Source of the DNA: a virus
Taxonomy: Duplodnaviria > Heunggongvirae > Uroviricota > Caudoviricetes
DNA length: 40,696 nucleotides
Virus record (IMG/VR): IMGVR_UViG_2541047870_000003
Direction: 5' to 3' (one strand)
Below, one piece after another: positions 11,953 through 18,364 of this stretch; the first letter of the stretch is position 1; each line of letters opens with the position of its first letter. The position numbers were made by a program, and so were the translations under genes. Below the pieces are notes generated by a model, which had not been told where the DNA came from, did no database searches, and saw only the letters and a list, made by a program, of their open reading frames with translations.

Positions 11953-12112
11953 GCCAAATTAATAATCGGAACTTGGTGAAGTGAAAGAGAAAACATAATC
12001 CAAATCTGAATAATTAAATTCAGCACTGTGAATAAAATAGAGTCCTTAACCGGAGGAATTCCTGCACTCTCAAATCATCAGGAGGCCGCCCGAAAAGGCG
12101 GTGGAGATAATA

Positions 12113-12631
12113 ATGGAAATAACTAAAGAACGATTATTGGAAATAGCAAGTCTTAGTGATGGGGCATTAAGTGATGGGAGAATTATTTCTCCTGATGCTT
12201 ATGAATCAGTTACAAGTATAGAAATAATAACGATGGCTAGGATGCTTCTTGCGCGCTTCAAAAAAGAATATAAAAAACAGGTAGATAGCAATGCTAATAT
12301 ATATGATATTTTGGACGGTTGGGGAGCCTGGGCTGTAGCTGAAAATAGTTCTATTGATTGGCAGGAAATAGCTGATAAATATAAAAATGTTGTTCCTCAT
12401 GGTAAAAAATCACGTCGTCAGTGCAGCAATGATGAAGGGGGTATAATTGATACCTGCATGCTGAGGCTTAAACAATATAGGATAGATGACTATGAGTTAA
12501 TTATCGCTCATTTTGTTATGGGAGTTTCATTGCGTTGTTTAGCTAAGATAAACGAATGTTCAGATGGTAAAATAAGGAAAAAAATGCAAATGGCAATGGG
12601 ATTTATTGCAGGTTGTATCTATTACCGTTGA
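12113..12631 (+). CDS. Q82/QuuD-type antitermination protein Q homologue with about 60-aa N-terminal extension, in accessory island
   Basis: C-terminal half shares the pattern I recall from DLP12 QuuD (GAWA, SRxQC, DD, CMxRLK, CSDGxIxK, GFIxG). Start 12113 chosen for GGAG spacing; track ORF starts at GTG 12101. Memory-based. Confidence 0.55.
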   Translation: MEITKERLLEIASLSDGALSDGRIISPDAYESVTSIEIITMARMLLARFKKEYKKQVDSNANIYDILDGWGAWAVAENSSIDWQEIADKYKNVVPHGKKSRRQCSNDEGGIIDTCMLRLKQYRIDDYELIIAHFVMGVSLRCLAKINECSDGKIRKKMQMAMGFIAGCIYYR

Positions 12632-12636
12632 TTTTT

Positions 12637-12659
12637 TAAGGCGAGTTTCTCTCGCCTTA
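12637..12659. other. Perfect 9-bp stem-loop (TAAGGCGAG/CTCGCCTTA) filling the convergent intergenic gap
   Basis: Seen directly; T-run precedes and A-run follows on the plus strand, so not a canonical intrinsic terminator in either direction. Confidence 0.5.
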
Positions 12660-12661
12660 AA

Positions 12662-14095
12662 TTAACTACAGTAACTATTGATTAAGTGAGAACTGAGCCA
12701 AGAGGTAATTGCATTCGTAGCATGTTCATCAAGCATTGAGAATCCTAATATGATCATTATAAATGAAATCAGCAAAGTCAGAATCACAACGAATGTGGCT
12801 ATAATCTGATAAGCTTTGTATGCCTCTCTTAATGGTGTGACTGCAAGATTCTCATAGTCAGTATCATCAAGAAAACCATATAGTTTATCTCTCCAGACTA
12901 GCCTAGTATTATCAAGTATCTTAAAGTAATTTTTATTTATGAAGAGAGTTGTAACCTGAGATATAAAAATATATATAGATAACGCGAAGAACATATATGG
13001 GAATATGTTATTGGTTATATTAATCTTTGATGCGTCTAGCGCATATTTTATTGCAAATAGACTTATAACCAGAGCCAGATCTTTCCAAAGAGCGGATGTG
13101 ATGTCTTTAGACTGACTTATTATTTTTTGCGTGTCTTCAGCTAAGGTTTTCCTTAGATCGGACAGAGATTTAATAGTCTCTCTGCTGCTAGCGCGAATGT
13201 GGGCCTTATATAGTAATTTTGCTGACTCAAAGGCCATAGGGAGTTTTTTTGGTAAACCCTCACAGAAGGATACATACTCTGGCCATTCTCGTGCTAACTC
13301 ACTTGTGAAGAAAGTATGTTTGAGTTCAATCTCATTGCCCTCAATAAAGATCCAGTTTATTACAGTTTGTAAAACTGAATAGTCGGAAAGCAGAATGTCT
13401 GGATCTCCATAAATTAATTTTTTTGGTGGCTTTCCAGTTAAACAAATTGATTTCTTTTCATCTGCTAATAATTCATTAACGAGAGTGCGACAAAGCATAT
13501 TGCAGGAAACTTGTAACCATTTTTTGAAAAAGTTGTCCTCTTCCTCAGGCATTTTATAAAGTACCCAAGGAGCTATATCAGATGCAGGCATGAACTCACT
13601 AGAATAGAATTTAACGTAGCTCTGTAAATTGATTGAAGTTCGTACGGTTTCATTAGGTTCAATTTTTTCTGGAGCATGGTTCCATGGCTCAACAGAATAT
13701 CCTAAAGTTTCAAATCCATGTTTCAAACCGAGAATATTCACTTTATTGGTTATTGATACTAAATCATCATTGTGTAGAAAAACATTCCACCCTTCGAGCG
13801 TAAAAATATACCTGTTATTTTCGAATGCAATGCATTTTAGCGTAATGTTAAGTTTATCACCTTCACTGCATGACGATGGTTTTACTTCATCATTACAGTC
13901 ATCTTTAACAGTAATTTCAATCCAATTTGGTACGTTTTCGTAAACGTACTGCCAAAGAATGAGTGCATCTTTGTCCATTTTGGCAGAAATTAGAACGCGC
14001 GCAGAATCATTTTTTATTGATTCTGATGCCAAAAATTCAGGGTCTTTCCTTGACGCCTGTATAGACTCATCGATTTTTTGAAGTATCGATGTCAT
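12662..14095 (-). CDS. Hypothetical protein, about 477 aa: about 350-aa soluble N-terminal domain plus three predicted C-terminal transmembrane helices; candidate membrane effector
   Basis: Hydrophobic segments LALVISLFAIKYALDAS, IFPYMFFALSIYIFISQVTTLFI, IIATFVVILTLLISFIMIILGF; GAGGA 9 nt upstream of ATG at 14095; 29-nt overlap with upstream gene. Track ORF extends to 14143. Confidence 0.6.
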   Translation of the reverse strand: MTSILQKIDESIQASRKDPEFLASESIKNDSARVLISAKMDKDALILWQYVYENVPNWIEITVKDDCNDEVKPSSCSEGDKLNITLKCIAFENNRYIFTLEGWNVFLHNDDLVSITNKVNILGLKHGFETLGYSVEPWNHAPEKIEPNETVRTSINLQSYVKFYSSEFMPASDIAPWVLYKMPEEEDNFFKKWLQVSCNMLCRTLVNELLADEKKSICLTGKPPKKLIYGDPDILLSDYSVLQTVINWIFIEGNEIELKHTFFTSELAREWPEYVSFCEGLPKKLPMAFESAKLLYKAHIRASSRETIKSLSDLRKTLAEDTQKIISQSKDITSALWKDLALVISLFAIKYALDASKINITNNIFPYMFFALSIYIFISQVTTLFINKNYFKILDNTRLVWRDKLYGFLDDTDYENLAVTPLREAYKAYQIIATFVVILTLLISFIMIILGFSMLDEHATNAITSWLSSHLINSYCS

Positions 14096-15125
14096 CAGTA
14101 ATAATCCTCGCAGTAGTAACAATAATTTGTTTTCGCCCATCATCTAAGTTTCTTATTTCTGGACGGTCATCTTCATTATAACTAATTACTACACTTTCTG
14201 CAGTTTCAATTTTTCGTCTTGGTGGTTTATGAATGCCATCTGCTTTTATAGTAAAGGATTCGCCTTCAATACCAGCATTTTTTGTTTGAGTTTTGAATGT
14301 GTTGAGAATTGGTGATTTTTCATCTAACGGCCCAAAAATGCTGGTCAATAACGGAGAAGCATCTTCAGGATTATATTCGAAATCAGCTCTGCTTAAAACT
14401 TCATATATTTTATTTACGCCGCTTTTTTGAATTGACTCTGGCAATAATTCTTTATGCCTTTTGAAGGTTATTTTCAGCGCATCAATAAGCTTATTGCAAA
14501 GTTCAATTTCAGAGTTGACTCTTTTAACATTTAAGAAGCCTTTAAAATATCCTGAAATATTGGTTCTTTTACTCCTGTCTTTTACAATAACTTTCCCGCC
14601 TTTCCCACTTGGATCAAGTTGAATTAACGCTATTTTTTGCATTGCCTCAGCTTTTTTTACGAAAGTTTCATGAAATCTTTCTAAAGTAGGCATTTGTTCT
14701 TCAGATAACTCTTCGTCAAGAACATAACGAACCACATCTTCATTATCGTATTTTATAATTGCATAGAATTTTTCCTTATCTGAAACCAATTCAAATAAGA
14801 AAAAGCATCCCATACTCGTGTTACCGCTAGAATGGTGTGACTGAAAATCACTGGCCAGTAGCTTCGATTGTTCTGTAAAACAATTAGCTTCAGCATCTGC
14901 TTTATCTCTAATGATACGCAGGATTCTTTCGGTATTTGAATTCTCCAGAAAAGTGAAAAGATTTCCTTTCAGTGAAGATTTGATACGTTCAAGAAAAAAA
15001 TCCACATGCTGAACTGGTTTTATTTCTTTGAGAAGTGTCGGTGCTTCAAGATTCTTACCTACAACGTGAAAGATCATTTTATTAATGACTAAATTTTGTA
15101 CGTCTTGTTCAGAAAGGAAACTCAT
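14067..15125 (-). CDS. Hypothetical soluble protein, 352 aa; weak resemblance to NA37/YejK-type nucleoid-associated proteins; candidate sensor
   Basis: GGAG 5 nt upstream of ATG at 15125; N-terminal INKMIFHVVGK and central GCFFLFELV...FYAIIKY segments resemble YejK as I recall it. Low-certainty, memory-based. Confidence 0.55.
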   Translation of the reverse strand: MSFLSEQDVQNLVINKMIFHVVGKNLEAPTLLKEIKPVQHVDFFLERIKSSLKGNLFTFLENSNTERILRIIRDKADAEANCFTEQSKLLASDFQSHHSSGNTSMGCFFLFELVSDKEKFYAIIKYDNEDVVRYVLDEELSEEQMPTLERFHETFVKKAEAMQKIALIQLDPSGKGGKVIVKDRSKRTNISGYFKGFLNVKRVNSEIELCNKLIDALKITFKRHKELLPESIQKSGVNKIYEVLSRADFEYNPEDASPLLTSIFGPLDEKSPILNTFKTQTKNAGIEGESFTIKADGIHKPPRRKIETAESVVISYNEDDRPEIRNLDDGRKQIIVTTARIITDDIDTSKNR

Positions 15126-15166
15126 CCTGACTCCATAATCAAGCAGATTAGAACTATGACTAGTCT

Positions 15167-15195
15167 AGTATATGCATCTTTTGGTGCGTACGCAA
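15167..15195 (-). promoter_or_regulatory. Candidate sigma70 promoter for the two-gene operon: -35 TTGCGT, 17-bp spacer, -10 TATACT, with 8-bp palindrome GCGTACGC over the -35
   Basis: Seen on the minus strand about 35 nt upstream of the 15125 start codon; hexamers judged by eye. Confidence 0.35.
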
Positions 15196-15454
15196 AAGTT
15201 CTTAAACTCAAAATGTTATCGCGGATAGATCTTTGTAGAGTCAGTGATTGGCGCAGGTAGGTGGTAACAGCAGACAAATAGCTGCGGATACTTGAGGCTA
15301 TCTGCCTCGGGCATGAACATCAAAGGCAGATAGAGAAAAGCCCCAGTTAACATTACGCATCCGGCAAGACGCTTAACATTAATCTGAGGCCAATTTCATG
15401 CTTTGCACATGTAGGTTAGCCTCTTACGTGCCGAAAGGCAAGGAGAAGCAGGCT

Positions 15455-15610
15455 ATGAAGCAGCAAAAGGCGATGTTAGTCGCCCTGATCGTCATCTGTT
15501 TAACCGTTATAGTGACGGTACTGGTAACGAGGAAAGACCTCTGCGAGGTACGAATCCGAACCGACCAGACGGAGGTCGCTGTCTTCACAGCTTACGAACT
15601 TGGGGAGTAA
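15455..15610 (+). CDS. hok: Hok-family type I toxin, 51 aa (MKQQKAMLVALIVICLTVIVTVLVTRKDLCEVRIRTDQTEVAVFTAYELGE)
   Basis: Near-identical to Hok/RelF-family sequences as I recall them; single TM helix; in-frame upstream extension (from 15398) resembles a mok-like leader; 10-bp inverted repeat at 15298-15341 upstream. Confidence 0.8.
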   Translation: MKQQKAMLVALIVICLTVIVTVLVTRKDLCEVRIRTDQTEVAVFTAYELGE

Positions 15611-16072
15611 GAGGACCGGCGGGGAGAAATCCCCGCAACCTCTGATGTATTATGCATCCTCAACGCAGCCACAGTTAACCTGATTGGCGGGTTTATTTCA
15701 TCTGTAAATATATTTATAAAAATAATGCCCACGCACAGCATAAAACAAAAAGTATTACAGATAAAAAAGGAACGTAATGTGCAGATTTGTTGTTTTCCAT
15801 ATTTACTCACCTTAATATGATTAACCCTGATAGGGTTGTTATTTCAGCGGTTTTCAAATGAGATATTATGGTGATCTGGCAGATTTGCATAACATTAAAA
15901 TTTAATTTGTTTAACCGCTTTTAATAATAAGCGTTGTTTGTATCCCAGCAATCTGTTGTTTGGTTTTTATTCCATTAAGGTGGGGCTTTACACTGGAGCC
16001 AGTTTATTTATACTTCATACGTCAGCCTGAACAACTGGCATCTGCTGCGCTGCGCCATCGAGAGATTAAGAA

Positions 16073-16672
16073 ATGGCGCATATACAACTGGTCAAACAAA
16101 CCTCTTCCGGATTACTTCTCCCGGCGACGCCGGAGAGTTGTGATTTTCTGCATCAAATCAAAATAGGCGAGTGGATACACGCAGACTTTAAGCGTGTGCG
16201 TAACTACGCATTCCACAAGCGTTTTTTCAAACTCCTGCAACTGGGATTCGATTACTGGACTCCGGTCGGTGGGGCGATCACGCCACGCGAACGAGAACTG
16301 CTGTCTGGTTTCGTTGATTACCTGTGCGAATCAGTTGGTCGGGAACACACGCCAGCCCTGAGTGAGGCCGCAGAGCAATATCTGAATACAGTTGCGACAC
16401 GCAGAACCCGGGATACGGCATTGCTAAAGTCGTTTGAGGCTTTTCGCGAGTGGGTAACCATTCAGGCTGGATTTTACACCGAACATTTTTATCCGGACGG
16501 TAGCCATGGGCGTCGGGCGAAATCCATCGCTTTTGCGAATATGGATGAAACCGAGTTTCAGCAGGTTTATAAATCTGTTCTGAATGTGCTGTGGAACTGG
16601 ATTCTGTTCCGTAAATTTTCCTCTCCGGAACAAGTCGAAAATGTGGCCGCGCAGCTGCTGGAGTTTGCGTAA
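16073..16672 (+). CDS. DUF1367 family protein (DLP12 YbcN-like), nin-region gene, 199 aa
   Basis: Recalled similarity to YbcN; position upstream of YbcO-like gene and Q. Confidence 0.6.
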   Translation: MAHIQLVKQTSSGLLLPATPESCDFLHQIKIGEWIHADFKRVRNYAFHKRFFKLLQLGFDYWTPVGGAITPRERELLSGFVDYLCESVGREHTPALSEAAEQYLNTVATRRTRDTALLKSFEAFREWVTIQAGFYTEHFYPDGSHGRRAKSIAFANMDETEFQQVYKSVLNVLWNWILFRKFSSPEQVENVAAQLLEFA

Positions 16673-16962
16673 TGGTGGATTTACGTAAAGCGGCGCGGGG
16701 GCAGATGTGCGCCGTCAGAATTCCTGGCTACTGCAATCACGATCCGGAAACGTCTGTGCTGGCGCATTACCGACTGGCGGGAACGTGCGGAACAGCGACA
16801 AAACCACACGATATGCAGGCGGCGATTGCCTGTAGCTCATGCCACGATCTAATCGACGGGCGGGTAAAAACCAGCGATTACACCAAAGAAGAATTACGCC
16901 TGATGCATGCAGAAGGTGTTTTTCGCACACAAGAAATCTGGAGAAAGGAGGGATATTTGTGA
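16672..16962 (+). CDS. DUF1364 family protein (YbcO-like), 96 aa, Cys/His-rich
   Basis: CxxH/CxxC-type motifs (CSSCHDL, CNHD); ATGG start overlaps upstream stop; recalled similarity to YbcO. Confidence 0.65.
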   Translation: MVDLRKAARGQMCAVRIPGYCNHDPETSVLAHYRLAGTCGTATKPHDMQAAIACSSCHDLIDGRVKTSDYTKEELRLMHAEGVFRTQEIWRKEGYL

Positions 16963-17501
16963 TTTACCCAACGAATACAGGAAAAAGCGGAGAACACCTT
17001 CGTCTCGCCACGCTGGAAAGTGTCTGGATTCAGGGCAAACTGCGTATGTGGGGGCGCTGGTCGTATATTGGCGGTGGCAGGTCAGGAAATATGTTCAATC
17101 AGTTGTTGGCATCCAAAAAATTGACGAAAACAGCCATCAATGAAGCCCTGCGCAGAATGAAAAAAGCGGGAATAGAGAAAGCTGAGCTGGAAGCGTTTTT
17201 GCGAGAGATGATCAACGGCAAGCAAAAGAGCTGGCTGGCGCATTGTACTGATGCAGAGGCGTTATGTATTGATCGAGTCATAAGTGAGGTGCTGGCAGAG
17301 CATCCAGGATTGATTAGCGTCCTTCGGCAACGGTATGAGGGGCGGGGGATGACCAAACGCAAAATGGCTGAATTGCTAAATGATGCACACCCAGAGTGGT
17401 GTTTTAGCACATGCGAAAAGCGAATTGCTAATTGGTTGGCCGTTGCTGAGTATGCGCTATACATTCCCATGCGAGAATCATTCGCTCAAAAAACGGCTTG
17501 A
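16959..17501 (+). CDS. Putative late antiterminator Q (positional call), 180 aa from GTG
   Basis: GGAGGG 6 nt upstream of GTG 16959, overlapping upstream stop; last gene before the AT-rich late-promoter region, tRNAs and lysis cassette. Family not recognised with certainty. Confidence 0.5.
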   Translation: MIYPTNTGKSGEHLRLATLESVWIQGKLRMWGRWSYIGGGRSGNMFNQLLASKKLTKTAINEALRRMKKAGIEKAELEAFLREMINGKQKSWLAHCTDAEALCIDRVISEVLAEHPGLISVLRQRYEGRGMTKRKMAELLNDAHPEWCFSTCEKRIANWLAVAEYALYIPMRESFAQKTA

Positions 17502-17586
17502 TTTTTTACGCATAAACTGCTTCAATTTTGCTACGCTTCGCAAAGCTGTATCGCGAGGCGAATCAAGCGCAATTAAACTTTAATAG

Positions 17587-17618
17587 AACCCGCCATCAAG
17601 CGGGTTTTGTTGTTATTG
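17587..17618 (+). terminator. Intrinsic terminator-like hairpin downstream of Q (AACCCGC-catcaa-GCGGGTT followed by TTGTTGTTATTG)
   Basis: Perfect 7-bp stem plus T-rich tail, seen directly. Confidence 0.5.
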
Positions 17619-17821
17619 TGGTGTGATATAAGAAACGACATTTAATATTGCCTTCAAAATAAATTTGTTTATATATTGTCGCGTATATTTTAAGTGAAGG
17701 TGAAATGTTCACATAAAATAAAAATACATAAATAAATTTACATAGCTTGACGCAAAGTGTTGTTGCGATTGGAATATTAAATTGTATCATCGAAAACGGT
17801 TCTGAGGGGGAACTCTTCTTT

Positions 17822-17903
17822 GCTCGGTGATATCGCTCGGTGATATCGCTCGGTGATATCGCTCGGTGATATCGCTCGGTGATATCGCTCGGTGATATCG
17901 CTC
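17822..17903. repeat. Perfect direct tandem repeat: 13-bp unit GCTCGGTGATATC x6 plus 4-nt partial copy; each unit has an EcoRV site
   Basis: Counted by hand from the sequence; units identical. Confidence 0.9.
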
Positions 17904-17918
17904 CCCTGAAGAACCAAT

Positions 17919-17994
<76 letters not shown>

Positions 17995-17997
17995 TAT

Positions 17998-18072
<75 letters not shown>

Positions 18073-18280
18073 GTTAGAGTCTTTCAGTCTGCGATGATGG
18101 GAAATCCCGGAGTGACTGAAAGACGTTTAAGTTATGAATGATCGCTTTTTTTAGCAAAATTGCTGTGCAGAAATACTAACCTTCGGGCAGGCGATCATTC
18201 ATAAGCACTCTGCTTTTATTCCGATTAACTGTGGGTGGTTTGTTGGATAGAGTGCTTTCCTTACTGTATATATTGTTTCG

Positions 18281-18306
18281 CCCGCTTTTGCGGGCTTTTC
18301 TTTTCA
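18281..18306 (+). terminator. Intrinsic terminator (GCCCGC-tttt-GCGGGC followed by TTTTCTTTTC); candidate tR'-like terminator between tRNAs and holin
   Basis: Perfect 6-bp GC stem plus U-tract, seen directly. Confidence 0.6.
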
Positions 18307-18364
18307 AATCCCTTTCATTTCTCAGTGTAAAACTACGCCATCCGTTATTTGCGGAGGTGAGGCT

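Follow-up and report, generated by a model that had tools for sequence, protein, structure and literature searches.

A paired NA37/YejK-family protein and membrane-anchored partner in a Rac-type prophage, a probable anti-phage module of the PANGU type

Introduction

The DNA analysed here, virus record IMGVR_UViG_2541047870_000003 (Caudoviricetes; 40,696 nucleotides (nt); called the window throughout), is a Rac-type lambdoid prophage of Escherichia coli that begins with its integrase, as judged from the annotation of the identical region in E. coli F5 and from a map of open reading frames (ORFs). Between positions 12662 and 15125 it carries two overlapping minus-strand genes, one for a nucleoid-associated protein (NAP) of the NA37/YejK family (protein 1) and one for a partner with a C-terminal membrane anchor (protein 2). 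The original prediction, made from the sequence alone, had proposed that this cassette joins a soluble sensor to a membrane effector in an undescribed phage-exclusion or abortive-infection module. The sensor and effector part of that proposal fits all the computed evidence, and the pair is probably a PANGU-type module, with the type II layout, that the prophage carries for defence against phages by abortive infection. The claim to be undescribed has been overtaken: the kind, a YejK-like NAP with a transmembrane (TM) effector, was described in 2026, and the cassette is most fittingly classed within it, as a member that is new or has possibly been tested already.

In PANGU systems a YejK-like NAP acts as the infection sensor and is combined with a toxSAS toxin in type I and with a TM effector in type II (bioRxiv 10.64898/2026.04.06.716658). 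Type II consists of Pag2A, the YejK-like protein, and Pag2B, whose N-terminal 'DMK' domain presents an acidic, DNA-mimicking surface and whose C-terminal part is TM. PANGU-Ecu, a type II operon from 'E. coli upec', needs both genes and protects against T4 with the traits of abortive infection, and T4 escapes it through mutations in denA (EndoII). Pag2A lies on the nucleoid before infection and is diffuse in the cytoplasm afterwards, and it binds the DMK domain with a dissociation constant (KD) of 19 nM; the authors of the preprint state that how Pag2A activates Pag2B is unknown. The PANGU constructs that were tested showed no toxicity, and the role of the NAP is that of an activator. Their survey yielded ten operon clusters, among them Cluster 2, which is type II and has an inter-phylum distribution, and Cluster 3, in which the NAP is followed by a conserved hypothetical protein (bioRxiv 10.64898/2026.04.06.716658). 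A second system of related design, DS-1 (D390 in Table S11) of DefensePredictor (Science 2026), pairs the YejK-domain protein DS-1A (WP_000355468.1; 391 amino acids (aa), with a zinc ribbon and a YejK domain) with the TM protein DS-1B (WP_000150292.1; 404 aa, with C-terminal hydrophobic helices), and was validated as protective in E. coli from its native promoter (PMC13092281).

Results and discussion

The ORF map of the window contains two intact minus-strand ORFs at this locus, 14067-15125 (352 aa) and a maximal ORF at 12662-14143. The start of gene 2 is the ATG at 14095 (MTSILQKI...), which gives a protein of 477 aa, is kept in 38 homologues from many genera and is also the start used by RefSeq. 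The cassette is thus laid out as follows:

14067-15125, minus strand: gene 1, NA37/YejK-family nucleoid-associated protein, presumed DNA-bound sensor (PagA-like); from the ORF and Pfam PF04245
12662-14095, minus strand: gene 2, 477-aa partner, soluble in its N-terminal part and anchored in the membrane by its C-terminal part, presumed effector; from the ORF and the conserved start
14067-14095, minus strand: overlap of the 3' end of gene 1 with the start of gene 2, 29 nt; from the ORF coordinates

Each gene is preceded by a Shine-Dalgarno-like sequence, as had been predicted, GGAG at 15131-15134, 5 nt ahead of the ATG of gene 1, and GAGGA at 14105-14109, about 10 nt ahead of the ATG of gene 2. 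The 29-nt overlap, together with the position of this GAGGA, implies co-transcription and makes translational coupling probable. The two genes, their lengths and their overlap are therefore as first described, with the conserved MTSIL start as added support. The pair is also more AT-rich than its flanks, again as predicted: the GC content is 0.33-0.37 over 12001-15000 and about 0.48-0.52 on either side. The trough extends over a convergent gene of the Q-antiterminator family at 12113-12631, which makes the AT-rich block one of three genes rather than two. Two long intact ORFs in DNA of 34% GC, with hundreds of homologues, lie far beyond chance. The cassette is antisense to the surrounding phage genes.

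Protein 1 (RefSeq WP_021552284.1, 'nucleoid-associated protein') matches Pfam NA37 (PF04245) with E = 9.3e-13 and 48.7 bits (cut-off 24.6), its residues 18-335 covering positions 1-316 of the 325 in the profile, and all 79 of its homologues retrieved carry PF04245 as well. By this profile match it is a bona fide full-length member of the NA37/YejK family; the NA37-like features noticed at the outset were thus real, but their description as weak does not hold. A PDB sequence search gave no match for protein 1. The chromosomal YejK (NdpA) of E. coli belongs to the Pfam family that protein 1 matches at full length; however, YejK is a stand-alone core gene, whereas protein 1 is a paralogue of accessory status, carried by a prophage and in every case coupled to a membrane partner.

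This coupling was surveyed with one genome per species, in 66 reference-genome loci that encode a relative of protein 2. The loci span Enterobacterales, Pseudomonas, methanotrophs, Dechloromonas, Limnohabitans, many Alphaproteobacteria and one Terriglobus (Acidobacteriota), so that the protein 2 family covers Alpha-, Beta- and Gammaproteobacteria and one acidobacterium. An NA37 ORF lies directly upstream on the same strand in 66 of 66 loci, which answers a check set beforehand, namely whether homologues of the pair co-occur elsewhere. The two genes overlap by about 10-37 nt (mostly 28-34) in about 28 of the 66, chiefly closer relatives; at the more diverged loci only their close adjacency was estimated. 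One of the two genes looks split or truncated at three loci (L010, L026 and L047). The two genes form a unit.

The unit travels. Among 5,426 complete E. coli genomes the exact cassette occurs in 29, always at 99% identity or more and at the same prophage position. It is interrupted by an IS5-like element, ISKpn26, in E. coli YZ_2_2 (NZ_CM146015.1, 2575877-2579477), and a remnant with 18% of the cassette left is found in E. coli E01 (NZ_CM143909.1, 2655444-2655877); such occasional inactivation is typical for costly accessory or defence genes. The pair is also found on Pantoea plasmids and, beside a Cro/CI gene, in the isolated temperate Thiobacimonas phage vB_ThpS-P1 (locus L074, KT381864.1). 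A variant pair occupies a different lambdoid prophage (locus L071, 8971-11819), where the NA37 protein is 80% and the partner 62% identical to those of the window, and a variant of 42% identity lies behind a tyrosine integrase and adjoins an ars operon. The placement in a prophage accessory slot was therefore well founded: the cassette is sporadic, AT-rich, antisense and open to disruption by insertion sequences (IS), and it has a second lambdoid slot as well as plasmid and phage carriage.

Its neighbours point the same way. Among the 253 ORFs that flank the 66 loci, two on each side, strong PADLOC matches were obtained to Septu PtuA/PtuB, type I and IIG restriction-modification, MADS, PARIS AriA, DrmC, PDC-S24, SoFic, AbiLi and E1-E2, and Pfam matches include 12 tyrosine integrases as well as transposases, Mrr, PLD, AbiJ/Abi_C, RES, Fic and patatin. 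In other genomes the pair is also commonly flanked by toxin-antitoxin genes. These neighbourhoods are a mobile defence-island signature, with an enrichment that is qualitative and was read without a matched control set.

This distribution bears on the idea that protein 1 is a 'foreign' NAP for chromatin regulation, silencing AT-rich prophage or host genes, with a membrane partner that tethers DNA or regulates the NAP and with no part in defence. Mobile elements are known to carry NAPs of their own, NA37/YejK is a genuine chromosome-binding family according to its Pfam description, and some of the loci lie outside recognisable defence islands. However, strict coupling to a membrane protein in all 66 loci is unexpected for a silencer, and sporadic accessory occurrence, IS disruption, the frequency of defence genes among immediate neighbours and two independent experimental validations of analogous NAP and TM operons as defence systems all speak against it; we regard silencing as very unlikely. 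An addiction module that stabilises the prophage, in which protein 2 would be a membrane toxin restrained by protein 1, is in our view very unlikely as well. It would account for an overlapping two-gene operon with the membrane protein downstream, adjoining hok/sok, and for the toxin-antitoxin genes next to the pair in other genomes. However, in size both proteins exceed what is usual in a classical toxin-antitoxin pair, protein 1, with its full NA37 domain, is no small labile antitoxin, and in PANGU the tested constructs were non-toxic and the NAP is an activator, not an antitoxin.

The partner is harder to place by homology. Protein 2 (RefSeq WP_046788432.1, 'hypothetical protein') belongs to no Pfam, NCBIfam, PHROG or PADLOC family and has no PDB sequence match. 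Sub-threshold matches to Saf_2TM, cytochrome b561 and MotB were rejected as matches of hydrophobic composition; that to Saf_2TM (the SAVED-fused 2TM family, PF18303) has E = 0.046 and 14 bits against a cut-off of 29.5, over only 34 hydrophobic residues. A Foldseek comparison of the protein 2 model with the PDB gave no specific fold relative (best E = 0.04), and neither sequence nor fold searches detected a catalytic or enzymatic domain. The family itself is large and uniform: an exhaustive profile search found 661 clusters at 50% identity with E <= 1e-3, of which 380 have E <= 1e-30, and nearly all members are 445-530 aa long. A word-indexed search found 101 clusters at 90% identity. In the protein collection clustered at 90% identity, one cluster (386 members, representative P0001) holds both the NA37 protein of 352 aa and its partner of 477 aa, presumably as a result of ORFs mis-called or fused across the 29-nt overlap, and its counts mix the two.

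An AlphaFold2 model of protein 2, built from a 38-sequence alignment, is confident, with a predicted local distance difference test score (pLDDT) of 87.9 and a predicted template modelling score (pTM) of 0.73; residues 1-250 modelled alone reach a pLDDT of 93.3. The model consists of an α/β domain (residues 1-250), helices at 256-268 and 277-302, a 50-residue helix at 305-355 and further helices at 364-404, 411-454 and 457-476. Together with the conservation pattern, it divides the protein into three parts:

13346-14095, minus strand: protein 2 residues 1-250, mildly acidic α/β N-domain that evolves fast; candidate for the NAP-binding ('DMK'-like) domain
13088-13345, minus strand: protein 2 residues 251-336, most conserved block of the family, with long juxtamembrane helices; from near-invariant columns and the model
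12737-13087, minus strand: protein 2 residues 337-453, membrane region with a conserved basic loop at 387-427; from Kyte-Doolittle hydropathy and the model

The N-domain diverges fast, down to about 20% identity, and across the 38 homologues the invariant residues fall mostly in the block 251-336, with the motif ELKHTFLT.ELAREW ... LLYKAHIR.SSKETLKSLSDLRKTLAED.QKI.QQS.DL.S.LWKD, and in the loop between the membrane helices. Among the invariant residues are H260, E266, R269, W271, H299, R315, W337, D339, W401 and Y406. Kyte-Doolittle profiles of the window protein and 94 family members place hydrophobic helices at about 338-357, 364-386 and 428-453, of which the first is weakly hydrophobic across the family. 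A long soluble N-terminal part, residues 1-336, is present as had been predicted; three hydrophobic helices are present too, but they occupy the last 140 residues or so instead of 120, and the first of them is weak. The loop 387-427 is conserved (WR.KLYGFLDD.DY..LA..P) and, because it is basic (family median 7 K+R), the positive-inside rule suggests that it is probably cytoplasmic. The soluble part has an isoelectric point (pI) of 5.1 and a net charge of -11 (family median -10, pI 5.3); net charge does not separate this family from DS-1B (net -9, pI 5.2).

An anchored partner for a DNA-binding protein could also act at the point of DNA entry. In such superinfection exclusion without cell death, protein 2 would recruit protein 1 to the inner membrane, where it would trap or coat phage DNA or block the injection channel. 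The union of a membrane anchor with a DNA-binding family would suit this, as would the sieB-type exclusion functions that the prophage also encodes, and neither an enzymatic nor an obvious pore-forming domain was found in protein 2. However, the juxtamembrane and membrane region is the most conserved part of the protein, which suits an effector better than a passive anchor, and PANGU type II, the closest characterised architecture, is an abortive-infection system whose NAP is seen on the nucleoid and then diffuse, not at the membrane. We consider exclusion at entry unlikely; like silencing and addiction, it fits the data less well than a defence module does.

For an abortive-infection module of the PANGU type the comparison can be made point by point. 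The preprint requires of a sensor a match to IPR007358 / NA37 with E < 1e-10 and a length of at least 300 aa, and of an effector gene that it adjoins the NAP gene in the same orientation, with under 40 bp between the two. In the window the NA37 match has E = 9.3e-13 in a protein of 352 aa, the genes overlap by 29 nt with adjacency in 66 of 66 loci, and the effector has C-terminal TM helices at 364-386 and 428-453 and a weaker one at 338-357 by Kyte-Doolittle and AlphaFold2. Shared with PANGU type II are an E. coli bicistronic operon with a NAP of at least 300 aa as the first gene, a partner with a soluble N-terminal part, a C-terminal TM part and no enzymatic domain, carriage on mobile elements, other defence genes nearby, and a distribution beyond one phylum; the N-terminal part in the window differs in being only mildly acidic. 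The taxonomic breadth of the family fits the inter-phylum spread of Cluster 2 but proves nothing, and the family could fall in Cluster 3 instead. There is no 'upec' strain among the 29 complete E. coli genomes that bear the pair. With PANGU type I (Pag1A with Pag1B/GRel toxSAS) the pair shares the YejK-like NAP sensor family and the proposed logic, in which the NAP is freed from degraded host DNA and binds the acidic 'DMK' domain of an effector. However, the type I effector is a soluble small-alarmone-synthetase toxin that makes pppGpp, whereas the partner in the window is membrane-anchored and has no toxSYNTH domain by Pfam.

DS-1 offers the same plan in E. coli, a two-gene unit with an NA37/YejK protein followed by an unannotated, mildly acidic protein with C-terminal hydrophobic helices, but it is not the same system. 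Protein 1 lacks the N-terminal zinc ribbon of DS-1A and has no BLASTP similarity to it (E = 3.5), both being NA37-family proteins too diverged for pairwise detection; the 38-sequence profile of the protein 2 family gives an hhalign probability of 0.1% with DS-1B (E = 0.41), and the homologue lists of the two partners do not overlap. These two results rule out that the window pair is DS-1. WP_046788432.1 and WP_021552284.1 are likewise absent among the DefensePredictor table entries listed. The DS-1B family is confined to Gammaproteobacteria, mostly Enterobacterales, and is commoner in E. coli, whereas the window partner family, found in Alpha-, Beta- and Gammaproteobacteria and Acidobacteriota, in prophages, on plasmids and in an isolated phage, is the more widely distributed of these two NAP and TM families.

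Among older systems, RexAB of phage lambda is also a prophage moron, in which a cytoplasmic infection sensor acts with a membrane protein that kills or arrests the cell. The likeness is a functional analogy only, with different sizes, topology and sensor family and no PADLOC match. PADLOC-DB v2.0.0 (2023), which includes Rex, Kiwa, Zorya and the PDC candidates, has 0 families that match either protein at E <= 1. The original prediction had asked for this search and for structure and sequence searches; its statement that the pair matches none of RexAB, Kiwa or Zorya stands with respect to PADLOC, but that of an undescribed kind does not, PANGU type II being already a named class. Older catalogues could not have revealed the system, because PADLOC v2 (2023) has no model for either protein.

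The defence reading is supported because the NA37 protein, the pairing in 66 of 66 loci, the mobile and defence neighbourhoods and the carriage by prophages, plasmids and a temperate phage all fit it, and the architecture has experimental precedent, since PANGU type II and DS-1 both confer anti-phage defence in E. coli. Several points weigh against it. The likeness to PANGU type II is one of architecture as described, and neither the PADLOC search nor the profile comparison with DS-1B returned a relationship. With a net charge of -11 over its 336 residues, the soluble part of protein 2 shows only mild acidity, and a DNA-mimic role is hence not evident from its composition; the weakness of the first helix leaves the topology uncertain, at two to three membrane helices. 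The neighbourhood enrichment is, as said, qualitative, and at some loci, such as L073 of Methylomonas, the cassette is surrounded by housekeeping genes and has no more than a MazE/PIN toxin-antitoxin pair near it.

On the PANGU precedent, the module could work as follows. The cassette would use a promoter of its own, run antisense to the phage genes and hence be expressed in the lysogen, where protein 1 would sit on the host chromosome and coat DNA, and protein 2 would lie in the inner membrane with its N-terminal α/β domain and long conserved helices in the cytoplasm. A superinfecting phage that degrades the host chromosome, such as a T4-like phage with EndoII and other nucleases, would free protein 1 from DNA; the freed protein would bind the fast-evolving, mildly acidic N-domain of protein 2, and the conserved juxtamembrane helices would switch the membrane helices to a toxic state, by leak or depolarisation. 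The infected cell would then stop growing before phage release. Within this scheme DNA binding by protein 1, the interaction of the two proteins, the trigger and the toxicity at the membrane are all inferred by analogy.

Whether the partner family is Pag2B is a separate matter. Tentatively, and with more doubt than confidence, it may be neither Pag2B nor DS-1B, and thus a third, independently recruited membrane effector for YejK-like sensors, with a new α/β fold in its N-domain, a conserved juxtamembrane switch and two to three TM helices. Were this true, nucleoid-protein sensors would have gained membrane effectors on three or more occasions, and the cassette would offer a prophage model with a native promoter for how a released NAP gates a membrane effector.

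If the defence reading is confirmed, the window holds a natural form of NAP-sensor immunity that a Rac-type prophage encodes and that has a promoter of its own, and phages that destroy the host chromosome would be kept in check in lysogens. The model of protein 2 bears on how a released NAP activates a membrane effector, as its fast-evolving N-domain, near-invariant juxtamembrane block and conserved basic loop supply concrete residues for mutation. About 660 clusters that are now 'hypothetical protein', with partners called 'nucleoid-associated protein', should be flagged as a candidate defence pair; PADLOC v2 (2023) misses them.

The promoter invoked above has a candidate upstream of gene 1, and a hairpin lies beyond gene 2:

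15167-15197, minus strand: candidate promoter/operator, TTTTGCGTACGCA at 15185-15197, 17-nt spacer, TATACT at 15167-15172; read from the sequence
L071 8899-8910 and L072 1783-1794: counterparts of the TTTTGCGTACGCA motif in two variant loci
12638-12658, no strand assigned: perfect hairpin of 8 bp, GC-rich, AAGGCGAG-tttct-CTCGCCTT, filling the 30 nt that separate the Q-family gene from gene 2

A sigma70 promoter with an embedded palindrome had been predicted here. The palindrome GCGTACGC is present at 15186-15193, inside the 13-mer TTTTGCGTACGCA, which lies 60-72 nt upstream of the NA37 start codon on the minus strand. The strength of the promoter did not hold up: TTGCGT (15190-15195) and TATACT (15167-15172), separated by 17 nt, have 3/6 and 5/6 consensus matches, and a consensus promoter scan of the region did not call them and found promoter-like sites at no more than the chance number. 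However, TTTTGCGTACGCA, the -10-like element and the Shine-Dalgarno context are kept at an equal distance from the ATG in L071 and L072, two loci of a diverged variant with proteins of 62-80% identity, although the intergenic DNA cannot otherwise be aligned. This conservation suggests that the TTTTGCGTACGCA region is a real regulatory site, and it could be an operator for a regulator rather than merely a -35 element. Exact TTTTGCGTACGCA occurs once in the window and is absent from all other homologous loci fetched; in enterobacterial variants that are more distant, the aligned position reads TTTTACGTA(T/G)G. At the other end of the pair, the hairpin has a T-run before and an A-run after it on both strands and no U-tract behind the stem on either, and is thus not a canonical intrinsic terminator in either direction; a terminator scan called neither this hairpin nor any terminator after gene 2.

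Additional observations

Two neighbours of the pair, one on each side, and two features near the start of the prophage complete the list:

12113-12631, plus strand: Q-antiterminator-family gene (PF06530), convergent with the pair, in the AT-rich block; Pfam E = 1e-33, GC 0.37
15286-15610, plus strand: hok/sok type I toxin-antitoxin locus, divergent from the pair; Rfam sok and Pfam HOK_GEF
1-1236: Rac integrase, start of the prophage
1557-1735: RalR/RalA type I toxin-antitoxin; Rfam RalA, 225 bits

The hok neighbour that had been named from the sequence was recovered by both searches, with sok at 15286-15460 (Rfam, 99.4 bits) and an ORF at 15398-15610 that matches Pfam HOK_GEF at E = 3e-21. By megablast, this stretch matches the mok/sokW regions of Shiga toxin (Stx) phages and lambdoid phages.

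The Q-family gene of the window has a 61-residue N-terminal extension and is 60% identical to the Q gene that is likewise convergent with the variant pair in the L071 prophage. There the pair is placed between Q and the methylase and lysis genes, in the slot where Stx phages carry stx. The AT-rich block of the window, by comparison, sits upstream of nin-like genes (DUF1367, DUF1364 and DUF1133). Because of these different placements, the whole AT-rich block appears to have been captured mosaically, which may leave the window prophage with a second antiterminator-type gene. The L071 prophage also has, at 15968-18315, an RVT_1 reverse transcriptase beside a gene with an '8xMP' Pfam match; the reverse transcriptase is possibly a retron or DRT-type defence gene, and that prophage may bear several defence cargos.

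In phage vB_ThpS-P1 the NA37-like gene is annotated as a 281-aa 'hypothetical protein', and a 350-aa ORF is available from position 545 (545-1597). This longer ORF matches the profile of the NA37-partner family end to end (E = 7e-45), and the deposited annotation is probably truncated at its 5' end.

From the integrase onwards, the gene order of the window is recET, kilR, sieB, racR and ydaSTUV, followed by lysis genes, trkG, and head and tail genes, and an Rfam scan found RalA, sok and two tRNAs. This one prophage thus carries several independent toxin or exclusion functions besides the pair: RalR/RalA, sieB, kilR, ydaS/ydaT and hok/sok.

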